Source: Escherichia coli
GTDB lineage: Bacteria; Pseudomonadota; Gammaproteobacteria; Enterobacterales; Enterobacteriaceae
Reading direction: 5' to 3' (one strand)
DNA: 64,000 nt
Assembly: GCF_041886205.1 (NCBI RefSeq)
Contig: NZ_CP169029.1
The notes under the pieces are model-generated. The model did not search any database. It was not told where the DNA came from and worked only from the letters and a program-made list of their open reading frames with translations. Shown one piece after another: positions 9,497-21,265 of the stretch. The translations under genes were made by a program, and so were the position numbers. Position 1 is the first letter of the stretch. The number at the start of each line of letters is the position of its first letter.

Positions 9497-11731
<2,235 letters not shown>

Positions 11732-12005
11732 TTATAATTGAATTAATCCACGGATGCGATAGTTGAGATCTTACATATTGTTGGTTAAAGAGATGTAGAT
11801 CAAATTGATCGTAATTAAGCTTTTTTGATTATGTCCGAATTCGGACAAATGCTTTATAAAAAAGGGTTTTAGCTTCATATCCTTCAAGTAATGAGGGAGA
11901 AAACAAGGCTGACAACCTTATTTTCCCGCCCTCATTTCGAGGCAGCATTTTGTGCTCTGTTTAAAATTTGTGATCACTGTGTGATTTTCACAAAAGCCAC
12001 ACTAT

Positions 12006-12899
<894 letters not shown>

Positions 12900-12945
12900 T
12901 TACCTCATCAATCGCTTGTTGTTATATGTTGTGTTGTGCACATCT

Positions 12946-12977
12946 ATCCATTTAGACGTCCAGATGTAAAGATGAAG
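12946..12977 (-). promoter_or_regulatory. Tandem met-box (MetJ operator) repeats upstream of metF
   Basis: agacgtcc agatgtaa agatgaag: three consecutive 8-mers resembling the AGACGTCT consensus, about 50-80 bp upstream of the metF start. Confidence 0.6.
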
Positions 12978-13307
12978 GAAAAGCCGCAGGGCGTCAACCG
13001 AAAAATGACCACTGATGGTGAGGAAAAATCAGGGAAGTTGAAATTTTTTCATCTGAAGAAAAAAACAGGGATACCAATGTTCAGTATGAGGTGAATATTG
13101 GGAAAATGCTGACGTTATTAATTTTATATTTATTTAAATGATGATTCATTCTGATTTATTTACTTAAAAAATGAATTATATTTTCAAATAAAACAAAAAG
13201 ATACTTTAAGCCTCTCCGGCCTCCTCGCTTTTAATTTTGAACCACTTCAAACAAATAATAAATTCCTAAGAATTAAGTTGCAGACAAATTATACATCCCT
13301 CACGATA

Positions 13308-13335
13308 AGTAGAACGTTCTAGTAGAACGTTCTAC
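13308..13335. promoter_or_regulatory. Tandem palindromic operator-like site upstream of the PTS gene
   Basis: aagtagaacgttctagtagaacgttctact: two abutting copies of a palindrome centred on CG (TAGAACGTTCTA); the second copy is a perfect 16-bp palindrome AGTAGAACGTTCTACT; lies about 55 bp upstream of the PTS start codon. Confidence 0.5.
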
Positions 13336-13389
13336 TTATATAAATAATCGTTCTTGCGCAGTCATCTGCGCTATTCGGGGGAAATCAGC

Positions 13390-14889
13390 ATGGGTCTGAT
13401 ATCGAGTGTCGTAAAATCACTTTCTAAACTGTCGATGATTGGTCGCGCGCTGATGCTGCCAATTTCGCTTCTGCCTGCCGCCGGGTTGTTACTGGCGTTC
13501 GGCGATAAATTCCACATGCCGTTGATGATGAATGCCGGCGGTATCATTTTTGATAACTTGCCGATGCTTTTTGCTATCGGTTCTGCCGTGGGACTGGCTT
13601 CAGAATCGGGTATTGCGGCGCTATCCGCAGCTGTATCCGTCTTTGTCACTAATATCACCATCGGTACTGTCCTTGGCATCACACCAGAGATGGCCGGGCA
13701 AGGCGGTAAATATGCGATGGTGGTGGGGATCCCAACGCTGCAAATGGGCGTCTTCGGCGGCCTGATATGCGGGGTTCTGGCGGCGTGGTGTTACAACCGT
13801 TTTCATACCATGCAATTACCAGAATTCCTTGGCTTTTTCTCCGGCAAACGCTTCGTGGCTATCGCGACGGCTTTTCTTTCCTTCATCCTTGGCTTGTTAC
13901 TGCCCTATGTCTGGCAACATATTCAGTCGGGAATCGATGCCCTATCAGTTATCGTCAATGGTGATAACCAGGCGGCATCGACCTTTATTTTTGGTGTGAC
14001 AGAACGTGCGCTCATTCCGCTTGGCCTGCACCACATCTGGTATCCATCGTTCTGGTACTCTTTTGGTGATTACACCACCCAGGCAGGCCAAATGATCCAC
14101 GGTGACCAAACAATTTGGTTCAAAATGCTGGAAGAAGGTGTGAAATCGTTCAGTAGCGACAGCTACCATAACGCGGGTAAGTTTTTACAGGGCGAGTTTC
14201 CGCTCATGCTGTTCGCGCTGCCTGCGGCGTGTCTGGCGATGTACCATGAAGCACACACCAAAAATAAGAAAATTGCCGCCGGTATTCTGTTCTCTGCCGC
14301 ATTAACCTGTTTCCTGACAGGTATTACAGAACCCGTTGAATTTACCTTTATTTTCGTGGCACCGGTACTGTACGTATTTAACGCGATAATGGCTGGCCTC
14401 TCCTATATGGCGATGTATCTGCTCCATGCCCACATTGCAAAATCCTTCTCGGCAGGGCTTATCGATTATATTTCGTTTGGCATCCTGCCATCATTTAACG
14501 GCTACGAAACCAACTTCCTGAGTGCCATTATTGTTGGCGTACCGATGGCGATTATCTATTACTTCACTTTCCGCTTTGTTATTCGCCGTTTTGATGTGAA
14601 AACACCGGGTCGAGCCGAAAGCACTGTATCCGCTAACGATAAAACCGATGATGAACTGGCTACGGAAATTATCAGTCTGCTGGGCGGCCAACAAAATATC
14701 TCTTCCGTCGCATCCTGCATAACGCGCCTGCGTCTGGAAGTGGCGGATAAAGATGTGGTTGATAAAGATGGACTGAACAATGTCGGTGCTCGTGGTGTGG
14801 TTTTCGTCGGCGAGAACGGCATTCAGGTGATTTTTGGCGCACGTGCACAATTTATCGCGCAAACCATGTCGACGATGATTGGCAAATAG
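13390..14889 (+). CDS. PTS glucose-family EIICB permease (substrate unknown)
   Basis: ORF-track entry 13354..14889; start placed at ATG 13390 (GGGGG 8 nt upstream). Multi-TM EIIC domain followed by an EIIB domain with the phospho-Cys motif SVASCITRLRLEV. Confidence 0.8.
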   Translation: MGLISSVVKSLSKLSMIGRALMLPISLLPAAGLLLAFGDKFHMPLMMNAGGIIFDNLPMLFAIGSAVGLASESGIAALSAAVSVFVTNITIGTVLGITPEMAGQGGKYAMVVGIPTLQMGVFGGLICGVLAAWCYNRFHTMQLPEFLGFFSGKRFVAIATAFLSFILGLLLPYVWQHIQSGIDALSVIVNGDNQAASTFIFGVTERALIPLGLHHIWYPSFWYSFGDYTTQAGQMIHGDQTIWFKMLEEGVKSFSSDSYHNAGKFLQGEFPLMLFALPAACLAMYHEAHTKNKKIAAGILFSAALTCFLTGITEPVEFTFIFVAPVLYVFNAIMAGLSYMAMYLLHAHIAKSFSAGLIDYISFGILPSFNGYETNFLSAIIVGVPMAIIYYFTFRFVIRRFDVKTPGRAESTVSANDKTDDELATEIISLLGGQQNISSVASCITRLRLEVADKDVVDKDGLNNVGARGVVFVGENGIQVIFGARAQFIAQTMSTMIGK

Positions 14890-14962
14890 TCATAAGATTA
14901 CGCTTTGTTGGAGGTTCTGGTCCCTGACTGGAACCTTCGTGCTTATTGTTCAGGGAGTGAAT

Positions 14963-15979
14963 TTGAAGAAAGTCAGCATAATTGATGTTGCCAAAAGCGC
15001 AGGAGTCTCAGTCTCTACTGTGTCGCTGGTCCTGCGCCAGAAAGGCAAAATTTCCGAGGCAACCATCGAGAAAGTTCATGCTGCCATTACTGAGCTTGGC
15101 TACGTGCATAATGTTGCCGCCGCCAATTTACGCTCCAACACTTCAAATCTTATCGGTCTGATTTTACGTGATTTTAGCGATAGCTTTTCCATCAAAGTGA
15201 TGGCAAGTATTGTTCAGGAACTGGAAGCACAAGGATATATGGTGTTCCTCGGGCAACCACAAAACGAGCATGAACATCTTGAACGCTGTTTGCTTTCCTT
15301 CAAGCAACAAGGTGTTGCCGGAGTGATTTATCTGGCTTCCGATGCGCAGCGTGAAACCTTACCTGGGCTGATTCGCCAGTGCCCTCTTCCTCTTGTCGTC
15401 ACCTCACAATCCCCCATCAAAGATGAATGCAATCTGGTATTGCGCGACAACCAGCAGGCGGCAAGCCTTGCCGCGCGTTATTTAATTGAGCGTGGACATC
15501 GTTACATTGCCTACCTCGGCGGCAGAGAAAGCGATCTTATCCGCCAACAGCGACTGGTGGGTTTTCGCCAGACCCTGGCAAAATTCGGTATTGCCAGTCG
15601 TGACGAGTTCACGCCAGCCTGTGACGATGATACATACGCCGCCAGCATGGCCACGCGCCAGTTGTTGGAGAATAACAATGCTATCACCGCCCTACTCTGC
15701 CATTCGCCCGAGGCCATGATTGGCAGCATCAACGGCATACATCAGGTGGGGCGCACCGTCGGGAGAGACATCTTTCTGACCCAGCAGGTGGCGCTAATTG
15801 GTTTTGAGGATATGCTGCACATCAACCTGACCTCTCCCGTTTTCACCTATGTCTCTTCCGCCAGTGAAGAAACCGGACGCCAGGCCGCTAATCTGATAAT
15901 CCGCAAATTAAAAGACCCGGAGCTGCAAATTCAAAGAATTGCGCTTTCGGGGCAACTGGTAGTGCGGGAATCGGCGTAA
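14963..15979 (+). CDS. LacI/GalR-family transcriptional regulator
   Basis: ORF-track entry 14879..15979; N-terminal HTH KKVSIIDVAKSAGVSVSTVSLVL followed by a periplasmic-binding-protein-like effector domain; start tentatively TTG 14963 (AGGGAG 5 nt upstream), start codon uncertain. Confidence 0.75.
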   Translation: MKKVSIIDVAKSAGVSVSTVSLVLRQKGKISEATIEKVHAAITELGYVHNVAAANLRSNTSNLIGLILRDFSDSFSIKVMASIVQELEAQGYMVFLGQPQNEHEHLERCLLSFKQQGVAGVIYLASDAQRETLPGLIRQCPLPLVVTSQSPIKDECNLVLRDNQQAASLAARYLIERGHRYIAYLGGRESDLIRQQRLVGFRQTLAKFGIASRDEFTPACDDDTYAASMATRQLLENNNAITALLCHSPEAMIGSINGIHQVGRTVGRDIFLTQQVALIGFEDMLHINLTSPVFTYVSSASEETGRQAANLIIRKLKDPELQIQRIALSGQLVVRESA

Positions 15980-16052
15980 TACAAATGCCGAATGAGATGT
16001 ACGTCGATATCGTCATCCGGCAATAAGGTGTAAACCAACTTAATGCGTATGA

Positions 16053-17606
16053 TTACTTGATATCCTTCACGCGCATACCGTTGAGCTGTTCATCCGTGAT
16101 GGTGTTACCCGCTTTGAAGTAATCAACCACGGCGTGATAAACATAATAACCGCCGGTTGTGTTGCGCGCCTGACCCTCGGTAAATGCGGTAAAACCATCT
16201 CCACCATCAGCAAGGAAACTCTGGGTGGCAATAGAATAAACTGTCGCATCTTCAATGGGTTTGCCATTCAGAGTCAGTGTGATTACCCGCTGACCAACCA
16301 GTTTGCTGCTGTCGTACTTCATTTCCAGGCCTTTCGATACCTGTAAAACGCCATTACTTAAACTTGCGCCGTGTTCCATCAAACTGCGTAATTGTTTACC
16401 CGTGAGTTCCATCGTCACCAGTTCGTTGGGGAACGGGAAGGTACTGATGACGCCGCCCATCGTAATCGCCCCTGCGGGGATCTCATTGCGAATACCACCA
16501 GAGTTGGTTAACGCCAATTGGGTGTTTTTACCCGCCGCTACCAGTAAAGCGTCCGCCGCCAGGTTCCCGAGGGAAGCCGATTCACCATAGGCACGTTTTA
16601 ATTCAACCGGCGACTGCGCCACCGTTTGTTGCACCACTTCATCAAGCTTTTTATTCCAGCCGTCGATTACCTGTTTCGTTTGCGGATCGGGCTTCCACTC
16701 GTCGGCGTAAATGGTTTTAAGCTCGAAGTTTTTCACCGTAAAATCATGCGGCTTCTCTTTGTAGTCGAGAACCAGTTTGCCCACATCAATCCCGCCGCTG
16801 TCAGTGGAAAGGATGAGTGTATTGCCGACTTTAATCGGTTCCGGCGTACCCACATGTGCATGTCCGGTGATCAAAATATCCAGCCCTTTCACCTGACTTG
16901 CCGTCTGGATATCTTTATCCAACGCGCGACGCACATCCGTGCCTCCCATACTGGACTGGCGGGCCGGAACACCTTCGTGGATCAGGGCGACGGTTAGATC
17001 AACCTTGCCTTTGAGTTCATCGATATAACGTTGTAGCCATTTAATTTCATCGCGCGCTTCAATACCCACGCGCGTGGCAGCAGATACCGTATCGTTGAAG
17101 GCAAATACGCCGTGCAAACCTATAACGCCAATTTTCACGCCGTCTTTTTCGATGATGGTATATGGCTTATCCCAGAATGATTTACTGCTGTTCTGATAAA
17201 AAACATTGCCCTGCACAATAGGGAATTTTGCCTGACTCAACTGTAATAATGTGTTGTCCCAGCCGTGGTCAAATTCATGGTTGCCTATCGTGACGGCATC
17301 AAACGGCATAGTATTCATAATATCGATAATAGCCTTACCTTTGGTCAGGCTGCTGATATAGGGCCCGGTAAAATAATCACCCGCATCAAAAAACCATGTC
17401 GCTTTATTTTTTGCTTTTTCTTGCTTAACCAGCGTAGTGATATTTGCCCAGCCGCCAATATCCCGTTTACCGTCAGCGATCCACGGCACTTTATAAGGCT
17501 CGACATGCGCATGGAGGTCGTTGGTATAAATGATGGTGACATCTTTGGCGCAAGCCCAGAACGGCAATGTTAATGCGATACCCGCAGCAAGTATTTTAAT
17601 TTTCAT
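16053..17606 (-). CDS. Secreted bifunctional metallophosphoesterase / 5'-nucleotidase (UshA-like)
   Basis: 517-aa ORF with signal peptide [20 protein letters not shown]; calcineurin-like motifs DLHAH, GDYF, GNHEFD, GHAH, then a 5'-nucleotidase C-terminal-type domain. Confidence 0.75.
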
Positions 17607-17738: not shown

Positions 17739-18869
17739 ATGTCGACTCTGTTTACGATTAATGCCTGCAAGTCGTTTGGTTGCCGTAATTTAGGGCAACC
17801 AACATCGACAGATTACAGCTGGCCAGACTATCGACTGGGTTATCCGGCACTGCACTGTCGGGCATGTGGAAGTTACCCGCCTTTGTTTGACGAACAGCAA
17901 TTTCGTGACTGGCTGTCAGTTCACTTATCTACTTTTGCAACTGAGAAAGGTCATTTCTGCCCGGTATGTTATGGCACAAAGACGATTTGTTATGGCCACA
18001 ATCCACAGGGGTCGCAACGCATTCAATGTCGTAACTGCAAAAAAGTCTGGACACCTAAACAATATCAGAAAGAAATAACGCCTCCTGAAATAATCGAAAC
18101 GGTTGCTCTTCTGGTGCCATTTCAGGGAGCCAGCAATGGGCAGAAACTGTATGTTTTAATCAGTTTTGATGCTCTTCGCGGTAATATTCTTCATCTTTCT
18201 ACTAATTACACGCAGCATCAGGCTGGAGAAAGTCTGCATTATCGATACAGAGGAAATGCAGAACCAGAGTTACACGAGAGTAATATTGTACAACGCGTTG
18301 ATATGCGCGAAGCACAATTTCTACGCCGCAGTCAGTTTGATGAAATTCAGTATGGCAGCGCAGCGCTCAAACGCAATGCTAAAGGTGTTATTCTGCGTCC
18401 GGTTATCACTGCACACGGGCATTTCAGAGTACTGAATATTTTATTCCCTACAGTAAAAACACATGTAATTTCACACGAGTGTTTTTTAAGAGGTGCCATT
18501 ATTACGGCATGGGCTGATCTTTTTCGCCAACAGCAAGGTGAGATTTGGTTTATTGAAGAGGAAATAGCTGACTATACCGATAATATGCCCTGGAGTTTTC
18601 AGGGAACAACTTATCACGGCTGGTGGAAAAATCAGTGGCAACTTTGGGTTCAGGGCAAAAATCGTAAAATGGTATGTGCATTAACAGGCGGAAATAACAG
18701 CAAAGCTGAAATGCTCTCTTTCGCAACCAGCAGACATTTTATCGACTGGCTACATAAACAAGCAGTATTTACTCACAGCACCCCGCTTTCCGCAGGGCGC
18801 GTTACGCAAATACTGCTTTCTCTGGCTCAGGATTACAACAACTGCGCCAGCCGGTTGATATCCGACTGA
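17739..18869 (+). CDS. Hypothetical protein with N-terminal Cys-rich zinc-ribbon-like motifs; function unknown
   Basis: 376-aa ORF; four CxxC pairs in the first ~100 aa (HCRACGS, CPVCYG, CRNCKK); lower GC than neighbours; 3' end overlaps the metL 3' end by 37 bp on the opposite strand. Confidence 0.5.
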   Translation: MSTLFTINACKSFGCRNLGQPTSTDYSWPDYRLGYPALHCRACGSYPPLFDEQQFRDWLSVHLSTFATEKGHFCPVCYGTKTICYGHNPQGSQRIQCRNCKKVWTPKQYQKEITPPEIIETVALLVPFQGASNGQKLYVLISFDALRGNILHLSTNYTQHQAGESLHYRYRGNAEPELHESNIVQRVDMREAQFLRRSQFDEIQYGSAALKRNAKGVILRPVITAHGHFRVLNILFPTVKTHVISHECFLRGAIITAWADLFRQQQGEIWFIEEEIADYTDNMPWSFQGTTYHGWWKNQWQLWVQGKNRKMVCALTGGNNSKAEMLSFATSRHFIDWLHKQAVFTHSTPLSAGRVTQILLSLAQDYNNCASRLISD

Positions 18870-21265
18870 ATCGCCCCGGCGGTGACATCGCGCCCTGCGC
18901 CTGGTCCGCGGATCACCAGCGGGTTATCGCGATACCAGCGGCTTTCGATGGCAAAGACGTTATCGCACGGCAGCAGTGATGCCAGCGGATGGTCTTCACG
19001 CACCGCTTCCACGCCCACACGCGCTTTGCCATTGGCATCGAAACGCGCCACGTAGCGCAGCACCAGCCCCATTTCGCGGGCCGCTTCCAGCCGTTGCACC
19101 ATCTGCTCGTTCAGTTCATCGCCATTTTCAAAGAAATGGTCGATGCTGCCGCCTTCGCAATGGGCAGGCACCAGCGATTCAACGCGCACCTGATCCGGTT
19201 CGATGTCGTAACCCGCTTCACGCGCCAGAATCACCAGCTTGCGCATCACGTCTTTGCCGGAAAGGTCATCACGCGGGTCAGGTTCGGTTAAGCCCTGCTG
19301 CCACGCCTGATCCACCAGCTCGGTAAACGGCACGCTACCGTCGAATTGCAGGAACAGCCAGGAGAGCGTGCCAGAGAAGATCCCGCTGATCGACAAAATA
19401 GTATCGCCGCTATCGATCAGATCGCGCACGGTATGGTTGATCGGCAAGCCCGCACCGACGGTGGCATTGTACAGCCAGTGACGCCCGGTTTTTTCGAAGG
19501 CGTCGTGGATCTGGCGATATTTATTGCTGTCGCTGGCTCCTGCCAGTTTGTTGGCGCTAATGACGTGGAAACCGTGGCTGGCGAAATCGAGATACTGGTC
19601 AGCAAGCTGCTGGCTGGCGGTAACGTCCAGCACCACTAAATCATCATACGGATGGGCGCGCATCCACAGGAACAGCGACTCTTCATCCTGCTCGACCGCT
19701 TCATCGTTGAAGAAGGCTAACGCGCGGCTGGCGTCCAGCCCGTCATAACTCAACAGGCTACGGCGGCTGTCCACCACACCTGCCAGCACAAATTCAAAGC
19801 CGGTACGCGCCGAAAGCGTGCTCTGCTCACGGGCGAACAGTTCCAGCCAGCGGGAACCGATATTGCCCTTGCCGAACAATACCAGGCCGATGCGTTTTTC
19901 CGCGCGGAAGACGGACTGATGCAGCCCCTGAATCAGGCTTTCGGTCGGGCCGGTGCGCAGTACTGCCACCAGGCTGATGCCGTCATCGGACTGCCAGGTA
20001 AACTCGACCGGCTGGCCTTTCAGTTGCTGCCAGAAGCGGTGGCAATGCAGCGGGTTACGGGTGACACCCGCCCCGACCATCGCCACTAGCGCCAGCCCCT
20101 GACGCAGGCGCAGTTCGCCAGGTAATCCCGCTTCGTCGAGAATTTTCAGCGCACTGTCAGCGACTTCTGAGGTGTAGCAAAATTGCAGCAACTGGCGATC
20201 GTTATGCACGCCAACCGCCAGTGGGCGCACCTGAGCACGTTTCAGGATCTGGTCGATCTCTTTATGCGCCAGTTTGAAATCCTGGCTGGCGGGCACCTGA
20301 AACTCAATCAAGCAGACATCATCGTGGCTGGTGACAATACGCGCTCCAGTACCGGAGGCCAGCACGCGTTCAATGCGCGTGGAACCTTGATCCGGCGTGT
20401 AGCTACAGCGCAGCTGCAGGTCGATTTCGCTGCCAGAAACCGGCTGTAAAGTACGGGCGTGAAGAACGGGAGCCGCCAGACGCGCCAGTTCGCTGGCTTC
20501 ATCCAGACGCAGCAACGGTAGCAGGCAGGCATCTTTCACTTTACGCGGGTCGGCACTGTATACCCCGGCGACGTCGCTCCAGATGGTTACACGAGAAACA
20601 CCCGCCAGCGCACCGATTTGTGTCGCGGAATAGTCGGAACCGTTACGCCCCAGCAGCACCGTTTCACCGGCGTTGTTACGGCTGATAAACCCGGTCACCA
20701 CCAGACGTTTGCCCGGATGTTGCACCAGTAGCTGTTGCAGCAACGGGTAAGAAAGCCCTTCATCAACCTGCGGTTGCGCAGCGCGTTCAGCGCGTAAAAA
20801 CTCGCGGGCATCAAGCCAGGCCGCTGACAGCCCTTGTTGATTAAGCACCGCAGACATCAGGCGTGCCGACCATACTTCCCCGTGGCCCACCACTTCCGCA
20901 TACACCGCGTCGTTAATACCGCTGTCGAGCAGCGCCGCCAGGCGCTCAAGATCGCTGACAAAAGCGCTAATGAGGCTATCGGCTTCTTCAGCGGGTAACA
21001 GACCGCTAATCAGATCGCACTGATAGCGACGCAGCGTTTGTTGAACCTGATGCGCAGAGAGACGATCGGTCTGGCTTAGTTTCAACCAGTTAATCAACTG
21101 GTTAGTGGTGCTACCGGCGGCGGAAACCACCATCATATCGTCAGGCTGAGAGTACTCCGCCATAATGCCCGCGACACGCAAATAACACTTCACATCAGCC
21201 AGACTACTGCCACCAAATTTATGCAGTTGACGACCTTTCGCCCCTGCCTGCGCAATCACACTCAT
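18833..21265 (-). CDS. metL: Bifunctional aspartokinase II / homoserine dehydrogenase II
   Basis: 810-aa ORF MSVIAQAGAKGRQLHKFGGSSLADVKCYLRVAGIMAEY. Confidence 0.95.
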   Translation of the reverse strand: MSVIAQAGAKGRQLHKFGGSSLADVKCYLRVAGIMAEYSQPDDMMVVSAAGSTTNQLINWLKLSQTDRLSAHQVQQTLRRYQCDLISGLLPAEEADSLISAFVSDLERLAALLDSGINDAVYAEVVGHGEVWSARLMSAVLNQQGLSAAWLDAREFLRAERAAQPQVDEGLSYPLLQQLLVQHPGKRLVVTGFISRNNAGETVLLGRNGSDYSATQIGALAGVSRVTIWSDVAGVYSADPRKVKDACLLPLLRLDEASELARLAAPVLHARTLQPVSGSEIDLQLRCSYTPDQGSTRIERVLASGTGARIVTSHDDVCLIEFQVPASQDFKLAHKEIDQILKRAQVRPLAVGVHNDRQLLQFCYTSEVADSALKILDEAGLPGELRLRQGLALVAMVGAGVTRNPLHCHRFWQQLKGQPVEFTWQSDDGISLVAVLRTGPTESLIQGLHQSVFRAEKRIGLVLFGKGNIGSRWLELFAREQSTLSARTGFEFVLAGVVDSRRSLLSYDGLDASRALAFFNDEAVEQDEESLFLWMRAHPYDDLVVLDVTASQQLADQYLDFASHGFHVISANKLAGASDSNKYRQIHDAFEKTGRHWLYNATVGAGLPINHTVRDLIDSGDTILSISGIFSGTLSWLFLQFDGSVPFTELVDQAWQQGLTEPDPRDDLSGKDVMRKLVILAREAGYDIEPDQVRVESLVPAHCEGGSIDHFFENGDELNEQMVQRLEAAREMGLVLRYVARFDANGKARVGVEAVREDHPLASLLPCDNVFAIESRWYRDNPLVIRGPGAGRDVTAGAIQSDINRLAQLL

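Follow-up and report, generated by a model that had tools for sequence, protein, structure and literature searches.

Here, we have analysed a 64-kb stretch of Escherichia coli DNA, called the window below, and argue that two abutting palindromes in front of a PTS gene are very likely a double operator, at which the MalI-like LacI-family repressor encoded in the same cassette would repress the PTS gene. That a candidate operator of the adjacent LacI-family regulator lies at this place was the original prediction, and comparative genomics is what now supports it. The pair of palindromes accompanies the cassette in 28 of 28 loci, in about 12 genera and in several chromosomal contexts. It is one half-site position away from the MalI operators of E. 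coli K-12, and the recognition helix of the putative repressor is common to MalI. Moreover, the pair follows directly on a predicted promoter that is positionally conserved. Read from the sequence in this way, a rare accessory cassette gains a probable operator, a probable promoter and a probable autoregulatory logic.

Sequence and geometry of the palindrome pair

The region 13307-13337 of the window reads aagTAGAACGTTCTAgTAGAACGTTCTActt. As predicted, it holds two abutting and exact copies, here called O1 and O2, of one 12-mer (Table 1). Each copy reads TAGAAC|GTTCTA, an even palindrome with a CG centre and within the range of about 12-20 bp that characterizes operators of the LacI/GalR type. 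The second copy does extend to a perfect 16-bp palindrome, AGTAGAACGTTCTACT, at 13321-13336; when both sites are taken in their 16-bp forms they have 13321-13323 in common, and their 12-bp cores do not overlap. What had been overlooked is that the two cores and the single base pair between them lie within a perfect palindrome of 35 bp (17+1+17, 13305-13339), which is the longest palindrome of the 64-kb window. The centres of the two sites, at 13315.5 and 13328.5, are 13 bp apart, a spacing for which we computed a rotation of about 86 degrees and a rise of about 44 angstroms on B-DNA. Two further statements of the original prediction, namely that the site lies about 55 bp before the PTS start codon and that a LacI-family regulator is encoded directly downstream in the same orientation, agree with the 55 nt that we count from the end of O2 (13334) to the ATG (13390) and with the open reading frame at 14963-15979 on the same strand.

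Table 1. Features of the cassette and of its surroundings in the window
Feature	Position	Strand	Remark
katG	9497-11716	-	
metF	12006-12896	-	
Predicted -35 hexamer TTGCAG	13278-13283	+	A/T tract before it at 13267-13275
Predicted -10 hexamer CACGAT (pattern nAnnAT)	13301-13306	+	17 bp after the -35 hexamer
Perfect 35-bp palindrome ATAAGTAGAACGTTCTA-G-TAGAACGTTCTACTTAT	13305-13339	.	contains O1, the 1-bp spacer (13322) and O2
O1, CG-centred 12-bp palindrome core TAGAACGTTCTA	13310-13321; as 16-mer 13308-13323	.	putative operator
O2, core identical to O1 (TAGAACGTTCTA)	13323-13334	.	putative operator
Leader hairpin GCGCAG-tcat-CTGCGC	13355-13370	+	about 7 nt before the Shine-Dalgarno sequence
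Shine-Dalgarno sequence GGGGGAAA	13377-13384	+	
PTS EIICB gene, glucose family, 499 aa, without IIA domain	13390-14889	+	presumed regulated gene
GC-rich hairpin (14-bp stem), then T-rich tail	14909-14939	+	between PTS stop and regulator start
LacI-family repressor gene, MalI paralogue, 338 aa	14963-15979	+	TTG start here, ATG in other genera
5'-nucleotidase gene	16053-17606	-	
Hypothetical gene, 376 aa	17739-18869	+	
metL	18833-21265	-	

The pair might in principle be a chance palindrome, or a recent and neutral tandem duplication of 13 bp without any function. Single perfect 12-bp palindromes are indeed as common in the window as in shuffled sequence (15, against 4-25 across 20 shuffles), so that one of them is unremarkable, and slippage can multiply a unit of 13 bp, the triple copies of the loci L058 and L054 described below being examples. 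The expected numbers per window are nevertheless only about 0.003 for exact copies of the core and about 2e-10 for identical tandem pairs at 13 bp, and the pair has been retained over about 12 genera in which the regulators are down to 65% identity and the flanking non-coding DNA has diverged. The chance reading is already contradicted by these conservation data, and we give it practically no credence.

We found no further exact copy of TAGAACGTTCTA in the 64-kb window, and no other good operator-like site. A 12-mer with two mismatches to the core, TATAACGTTGTA, is present at 17024-17035 within the nucleotidase gene and also in the loci L004 and L005; since 1.3 such matches are expected per window by chance, it is probably no site. 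A literature search on the exact string TAGAACGTTCTA returned only eukaryotic heat-shock-element oligonucleotides, which are irrelevant here.

The cassette and its distribution

Over the 4.1 kb compared (12000-16100), the window is 100% identical to E. coli strain wlxctx60. Among 5,426 complete E. coli genomes, just 8 carry the gene pair of PTS protein and regulator. In strain S10 the cassette is absent and metF adjoins the nucleotidase gene, and a MAFFT alignment of the window with this strain, in which the sequences diverge after about 13056 and rejoin near 16040, gives the boundaries of the cassette. The gap between metF and metL is also where the cassette lies in most Kluyvera loci and in the other Escherichia species that were sampled. 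Elsewhere its flanks are folD/cysS, in two other genera, or cca, an SDR dehydrogenase or an MFS transporter, in others. As the flanking genes differ between genera, the site belongs to a self-contained two-gene cassette, the distribution of which points either to an old inheritance followed by losses or to a transfer through homology of the flanks.

The PTS protein, which RefSeq names 'PTS transporter subunit EIIC', scores 562 bits on TIGR02002 (cutoff 592), 415 bits on the E. coli PtsG model and 312-320 bits on the MalX models (cutoffs 632-665). Judged by these scores, it is nearer to the glucose-type models than to MalX. At the loci examined, we found no linked catabolic genes that could serve as a clue to the substrate, the flanks being unrelated housekeeping genes.

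Several side observations were made at these loci. In Kluyvera genomosp. 3 YDC799 (L013) the PTS frame is broken and both operator copies carry changes of the TATAAC type, and the cassette may be decaying in that strain. A contig labelled Chryseobacterium sp. 18061 (L015) carries a cassette of the Enterobacterales type, with a regulator 79% and a PTS protein 91% identical to those of the window; its closest match is a Citrobacter contig of the same study, and the assembly is probably mislabelled or contaminated. In the window itself, the hypothetical open reading frame before metL weakly matches (E ~2e-4) a zinc-binding N-terminal domain of the IS1 type, and its 3' end and that of metL overlap by 37 bp. 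Upstream of metF, at 12945-12975, the sequence tttAGACGTCCAGATGTaaag is similar to MetJ boxes in tandem (consensus AGACGTCT), which is in keeping with a metF promoter.

The regulator is a paralogue of MalI

The regulator of the cassette scores 319.5 bits on the NCBIfam MalI 'subfamily' model, slightly above the cutoff of 310, and NF047341 is its second-best NCBIfam model. It is 37% identical to K-12 MalI and has an identical recognition helix, GVSVSTVSLVL. This level of identity and the separate malI locus of K-12 speak against orthology with MalI, and since K-12 malI lies at another locus, the cassette regulator is a MalI paralogue in E. coli. The targets of a MalI regulon, malX together with malY, are likewise missing from the cassette, where the PTS protein scores below the MalX cutoffs and no malY-like gene was found.

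The DNA-reading head and the hinge of the regulator, GVSVSTVSLVLRQKGKIS...LVLRQKGKIS...YVHNVAAANLR, hardly vary among 29 orthologs. With 338 residues, the protein aligns to the LacI model only as far as position 330 of 358, which indicates that it is without the C-terminal tetramerisation segment of LacI.

The pair is conserved and co-inherited with the regulator

The orthologous loci were collected with the regulator protein, taking one genome per species and making no use of the DNA motif. This search gave 28 loci, with regulators of 65-96% identity, from about 12 genera: Escherichia, Kluyvera, Silvania, Citrobacter, Kosakonia, Mixta, Franconibacter, Siccibacter, Atlantibacter, Buttiauxella, Erwinia and Serratia. 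In all 28 the PTS gene is directly upstream of the regulator gene and is preceded, at a distance of 32-64 nt from its ATG, by two sites of the form TA[G/A/T]AACGTT[C/A/T]TA exactly 13 bp apart. Site and cognate regulator are thus inherited together, and both the 13-bp layout and the length of the 1-bp spacer persist throughout this independently ascertained set (28/28). From this count of layout conservation we left out 44 metagenome orthologs, which had been found by the pattern itself.

Information content was calculated from 20 sequences thinned to <80% identity. Every position of the O1 core holds at least 1.71 of 2 bits, and all core positions of the whole pair save one hold 1.7-2.0 bits, against 0-0.7 bits in the surrounding spacer, that is, in the columns between the promoter elements. 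The outer flanks TAAG/CTTA are also symmetric, with 2.0/2.0 bits at G/C, 1.5/1.4 and 1.0/0.8 at the two A/T positions and 1.7/1.7 at T/A. Among 50 distinct operator sequences from orthologs, the half-sites of O1 are TAGAAC in 45, and variation is confined to position 3 of the half-site. At this position three of the half-sites have G in 41-45 of the 50, and the left half of O2 has A in 28, G in 14, T in 8 and never C. One ortholog, L058 (718-755), has three 12-bp copies in the 13-bp register, TAGAACGTTCTA-G-TAAAACGTTCTA-G-TAAAACGTTCTA. As a separate observation, L054 (5304-5341) has TATAACGTTGTA three times in the same register.

The operators of MalI in K-12 read TAAAACGTTTTA. Aligning the MalI operator in the form GATAAAACGTTTTATC with the window leaves the common frame TAnAACGTTnTA; here G stands at position 3 in three of four half-sites, and the MalI half-site TAAAAC is accepted at the left half of O2. 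It is therefore worth asking whether the MalI of the host (the b1620 orthologue) binds the pair mainly or additionally, which would tie the PTS gene into the host MalI regulon. The identical recognition helices of the two proteins are consistent with such binding, and so is the presence of TAAAAC in O2-left in 28 of the 50 distinct orthologous sequences. Against it, the sites and the cassette regulator are found together in every genome and in any context, the preference for G at position 3 of three half-sites (41-45/50) is unlike the K-12 MalI sites, and the residues adjacent to the helix, which could set specificity, are LVLRQKGK here and LVLSGKGR in MalI, the hinge differing too. We consider a main or additional role of host MalI improbable and favour the cassette repressor as the cognate protein. 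MalI and its paralogue, having the same recognition helix and near-identical operators, offer a natural system for studying how cross-talk between paralogous repressors is avoided or put to use.

Predicted promoter, transcript and proposed mechanism

In all 29 sequences, a scan with a sigma-70 weight matrix placed TTGCnn and nAnnAT, separated by 17-18 bp, at one and the same position, and the TTGC (13278-13281 in the window) keeps a fixed distance from O1 in each of them. In the thinned set, A13302, A13305 and T13306 of the -10 element hold 1.71 bits each, and the positions between them vary; the conserved positions are the very ones on which a -10 element depends. The consensus match of TTGCAG-17-CACGAT is weak (3/6 plus 3/6), and a generic promoter scan of the + strand upstream of the PTS gene returned nothing at its threshold. 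We infer from the conserved elements that transcription would start near 13313, inside O1. A start at this position centres O1 near +3 and O2 near +16 and places the pair at about -3 to +22, within the footprint of RNA polymerase, which fits repression by a polymerase block at a conserved weak promoter. Part of the '-10' conservation (T13306, AAG) may belong to the operator flanks instead.

Upstream of the operator, the DNA is very AT-rich (GC ~0.32 over 13080-13300) and holds a higher-scoring promoter-like sequence, TTGAAC-16-TAAATT at 13237-13264, which is conserved only within Escherichia. If this were a real promoter, the operators would act on it as a roadblock at about +40 to +65. Other promoter arrangements were considered and rejected. 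A downstream promoter with TATAAA (13339-13344) as its -10, in which the sites would lie over the -35 and the spacer, is outscored by the upstream promoter in 28 of 29 sequences; its hexamer is not conserved, position 6 being A in all orthologs and some species having only an A-run there. A class II CRP site (TGTGA-N6-TCACA) over the -35 is matched by the window copy at 2/5 and 0/5 positions, and in the 29 orthologs the full TGTGA occurs in 3 and the second half in none. A sigma-54 promoter, as suggested by TTGCA, lacks the GG 10 nt upstream when inspected by eye.

Two hairpins are predicted in the transcript. At the place of the leader hairpin most other genera have hairpins of different sequence (e.g. 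CAGGGC..GCCTGG or GCGC..GCGC). Likewise, a hairpin of other sequence with a T-rich tail is found at the place of 14909-14939 in nearly all 28 orthologous loci; this second hairpin is probably a partial terminator or attenuator that lowers expression of the regulator relative to the transporter. The stretch that follows it is too short to hold a promoter of the regulator's own.

That hairpins are conserved elsewhere in the same transcript, and that the palindrome of 17+1+17 bp is perfect and the longest in the window, could also be taken to mean that the 35 bp act as a nucleic-acid structure, as an RNA leader hairpin or a DNA cruciform. The pattern of substitutions argues otherwise. The inner arm pair formed by O1 position 10 and O2 position 3 is C-A in 27 and C-T in 8 of the 50 distinct sequences, and the pair within O2 (positions 3 and 10) is A-C in 24 of 50. 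Substitutions in the arms are thus uncompensated, which makes a hairpin role unlikely, and the restriction of variation to one half-site position is what one expects of readout by a protein. Furthermore, the left arm would not be transcribed, because the conserved promoter puts the start inside O1, and an Rfam search of the operator and leader region gave no relevant family match at E<=1. A structural role of this kind is, in our view, highly improbable.

Taking the pair as an operator, we propose the following mechanism. One dimer of the cassette repressor would bind each CG-centred site through the half-site 5'-(A)AG-TA[G>A,T]AAC-3', immediately downstream of the weak conserved sigma-70 promoter. 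Bound repressor would block either the formation of the open complex by RNA polymerase or the escape from it, and the PTS gene would be off. The gene of the repressor itself, expressed by read-through of the intergenic hairpin, would also be shut off, amounting to autoregulation. An inducer, most likely a sugar-phosphate made by the transporter of the cassette, would release the repressor.

The 13-bp register and occupancy of the two sites

Distances between sites of LacI-family regulators are reported to peak at 13, 22 and 32 bp, and 110 operons have overlapping sites with a spacing of about 13 bp in front of them (Ravcheev et al. 2014, PMC4052901). The arrangement was reported to be functional for E. 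coli GntR at gntKU and to be hard to reconcile with the crystal structures of repressor-DNA complexes (PMC4052901). The tandem layout itself is accordingly already known, and the present locus is, as we read its sequence, a MalI-paralogue operator in that layout; under MalI, the text and supplements of PMC4052901 that we examined do not contain sites of the cassette regulator. The idea of cooperative or dual-dimer binding in the original prediction would correspond, by analogy, to this documented arrangement (PMC4052901).

To see the layout outside the cassette, we scanned metagenome contigs for two TAnAACGTTnTA cores in the 13-bp register and obtained at least 120 stretches. Among the matches listed, 44 are orthologs of the cassette, 47 adjoin LacI-family genes 22-35% identical to the window regulator, and 29 are without a LacI-family gene in the stretch examined. 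The layout is thereby found beside RbsR of Lactobacillales and beside at least four other distant LacI lineages. The RbsR proteins score 473-487 bits on NF047341 (cutoff 382), and the tandem site stands between rbsR and rbsK-rbsD-rbsU: in L033, L043, L060 and about 25 other metagenome loci, TAAAACGTTTTA-N-TAAAACGTTTTA follows the rbsR stop by 34-39 bp and is itself followed by rbsK, rbsD and rbsU. These RbsR sites are an observation on metagenome contigs, for which we found no published experiment. A second group, from soil contigs of high GC content (~0.69), has exactly TAGAACGTTCTA-N-TAGAACGTTCTA, located 26-72 bp before the start of a distant LacI-family gene whose head reads GVSTALVSIVFRG (L068, L082, L087, L101, L105, L109, L121, L125, L126 and L143). 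The core motif of this group is that of the window despite a different recognition helix; in L068, the one member inspected, the site is divergent from an open reading frame without NCBIfam match. In a further distant group the tandem site is divergent from a mannonate dehydratase gene.

How, then, could the two sites be occupied? The operator may be correct as described, with O1 and O2 serving as alternative, mutually exclusive positions of a single dimer and the duplication only raising occupancy. Ravcheev et al. argue from crystal structures that such repressors make specific contacts with about 7 bp on each side of the centre, so that at a spacing of 13 bp the contact zones overlap, and that the dimers cannot interact (PMC4052901). 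At the present locus, the 16-bp versions of O1 and O2 overlap at 13321-13323, and the regulator is without the tetramerisation tail of LacI. These points are countered by the separate 12-bp cores and the strong conservation of all four half-sites, by the invariant length of the 1-bp spacer in the 28 independently ascertained loci, and by the ortholog L058 with its three copies in the same register. In addition, unrelated LacI lineages show the same preference for 13 bp (PMC4052901), an indication that selection acts on the geometry as such. We judge mutual exclusion to be unlikely on balance. The conserved half-sites and spacer, together with the triple copy in L058, make us lean towards simultaneous occupancy.

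With simultaneous occupancy of both sites in mind, we would raise, tentatively, the possibility that the 13-bp register represents an obligate higher-order mode, in which dimers sit at once on abutting cores (three of them in L058) and which unrelated LacI lineages share. The dimers would occupy adjacent helix faces, rotated by about 86 degrees against each other, perhaps with a local distortion of the DNA, and the mode would be common to MalI-like regulators, GntR, RbsR of Lactobacillales and actinobacterial regulators. If this is true, the present locus, having two identical and perfect sites, would be the cleanest natural substrate for solving it.

Comparison with known systems

Among characterized repressors, K-12 MalI is the one that the cassette regulator resembles in several respects. 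Both are LacI-family proteins with the helix GVSVSTVSLVL, and the operator of both is a CG-centred 16-bp palindrome, TAAAACGTTTTA in K-12 against TAGAACGTTCTA here, with one half-site position different (TAAAAC in K-12, TAGAAC here). MalI is reported to repress both the malX and the malI promoters via a 16-bp target (PMC5543585, which cites Lloyd et al. 2008 and 2010). The target in both systems is the gene of a glucose-family PTS EIICB, and the repressor here, like MalI, probably represses its own gene (PMC5543585). The differences are also clear. The regulator is only 37% identical to MalI, and E. coli has a malI gene of its own at another locus; the PTS protein of the cassette is closer to glucose-type models, and malY is absent from the cassette. 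Whereas malX and malI are divergent in K-12, the PTS gene and the regulator gene are co-directional here, in this order. The two abutting sites of the cassette lie at one promoter, whereas K-12 has two single sites about 70 bp apart, each with its own promoter. Work by Lloyd from 2010 is reported to have located the K-12 sites at -24 to -9 of malX and at +3 to +18 of malI. The promoter of K-12 malX is, moreover, reported to be a class II CRP promoter, whereas a CRP site was undetected in the window copy.

The lac operator O1 provides a second comparison. In both cases the operator, predicted here, overlaps the transcription start or early transcribed region, and a LacI-family repressor would block RNA polymerase. 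The cassette differs from lac in its two abutting sites and in a protein without tetramerisation tail; LacI forms tetramers and reaches distant auxiliary operators by DNA looping.

As to the layout, a close known counterpart is that of GntR at gntKU. The upstream region of K-12 gntK reads GTTACCGATAAC-A-GTTACCCGTAAC, with exactly the same geometry of a 12-bp core, 1 bp and a 12-bp core, likewise conserved among orthologs, although the regulator subfamily and the motif are other ones. RbsR of Lactobacillales has the tandem TAAAACGTTTTA-N-TAAAACGTTTTA in the same 13-bp register and adjoining the regulator gene, yet that regulator is about 25% identical to the one in the window, its host is Gram-positive, and the site is located downstream of the regulator gene, between it and the genes of ribose catabolism. 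Compared with the sites collected by Ravcheev et al., both copies at the present locus are perfect and identical and together form a perfect palindrome of 35 bp. The locus adds a very clean, symmetric and strictly conserved example to the class of LacI-family sites spaced by 13 bp.
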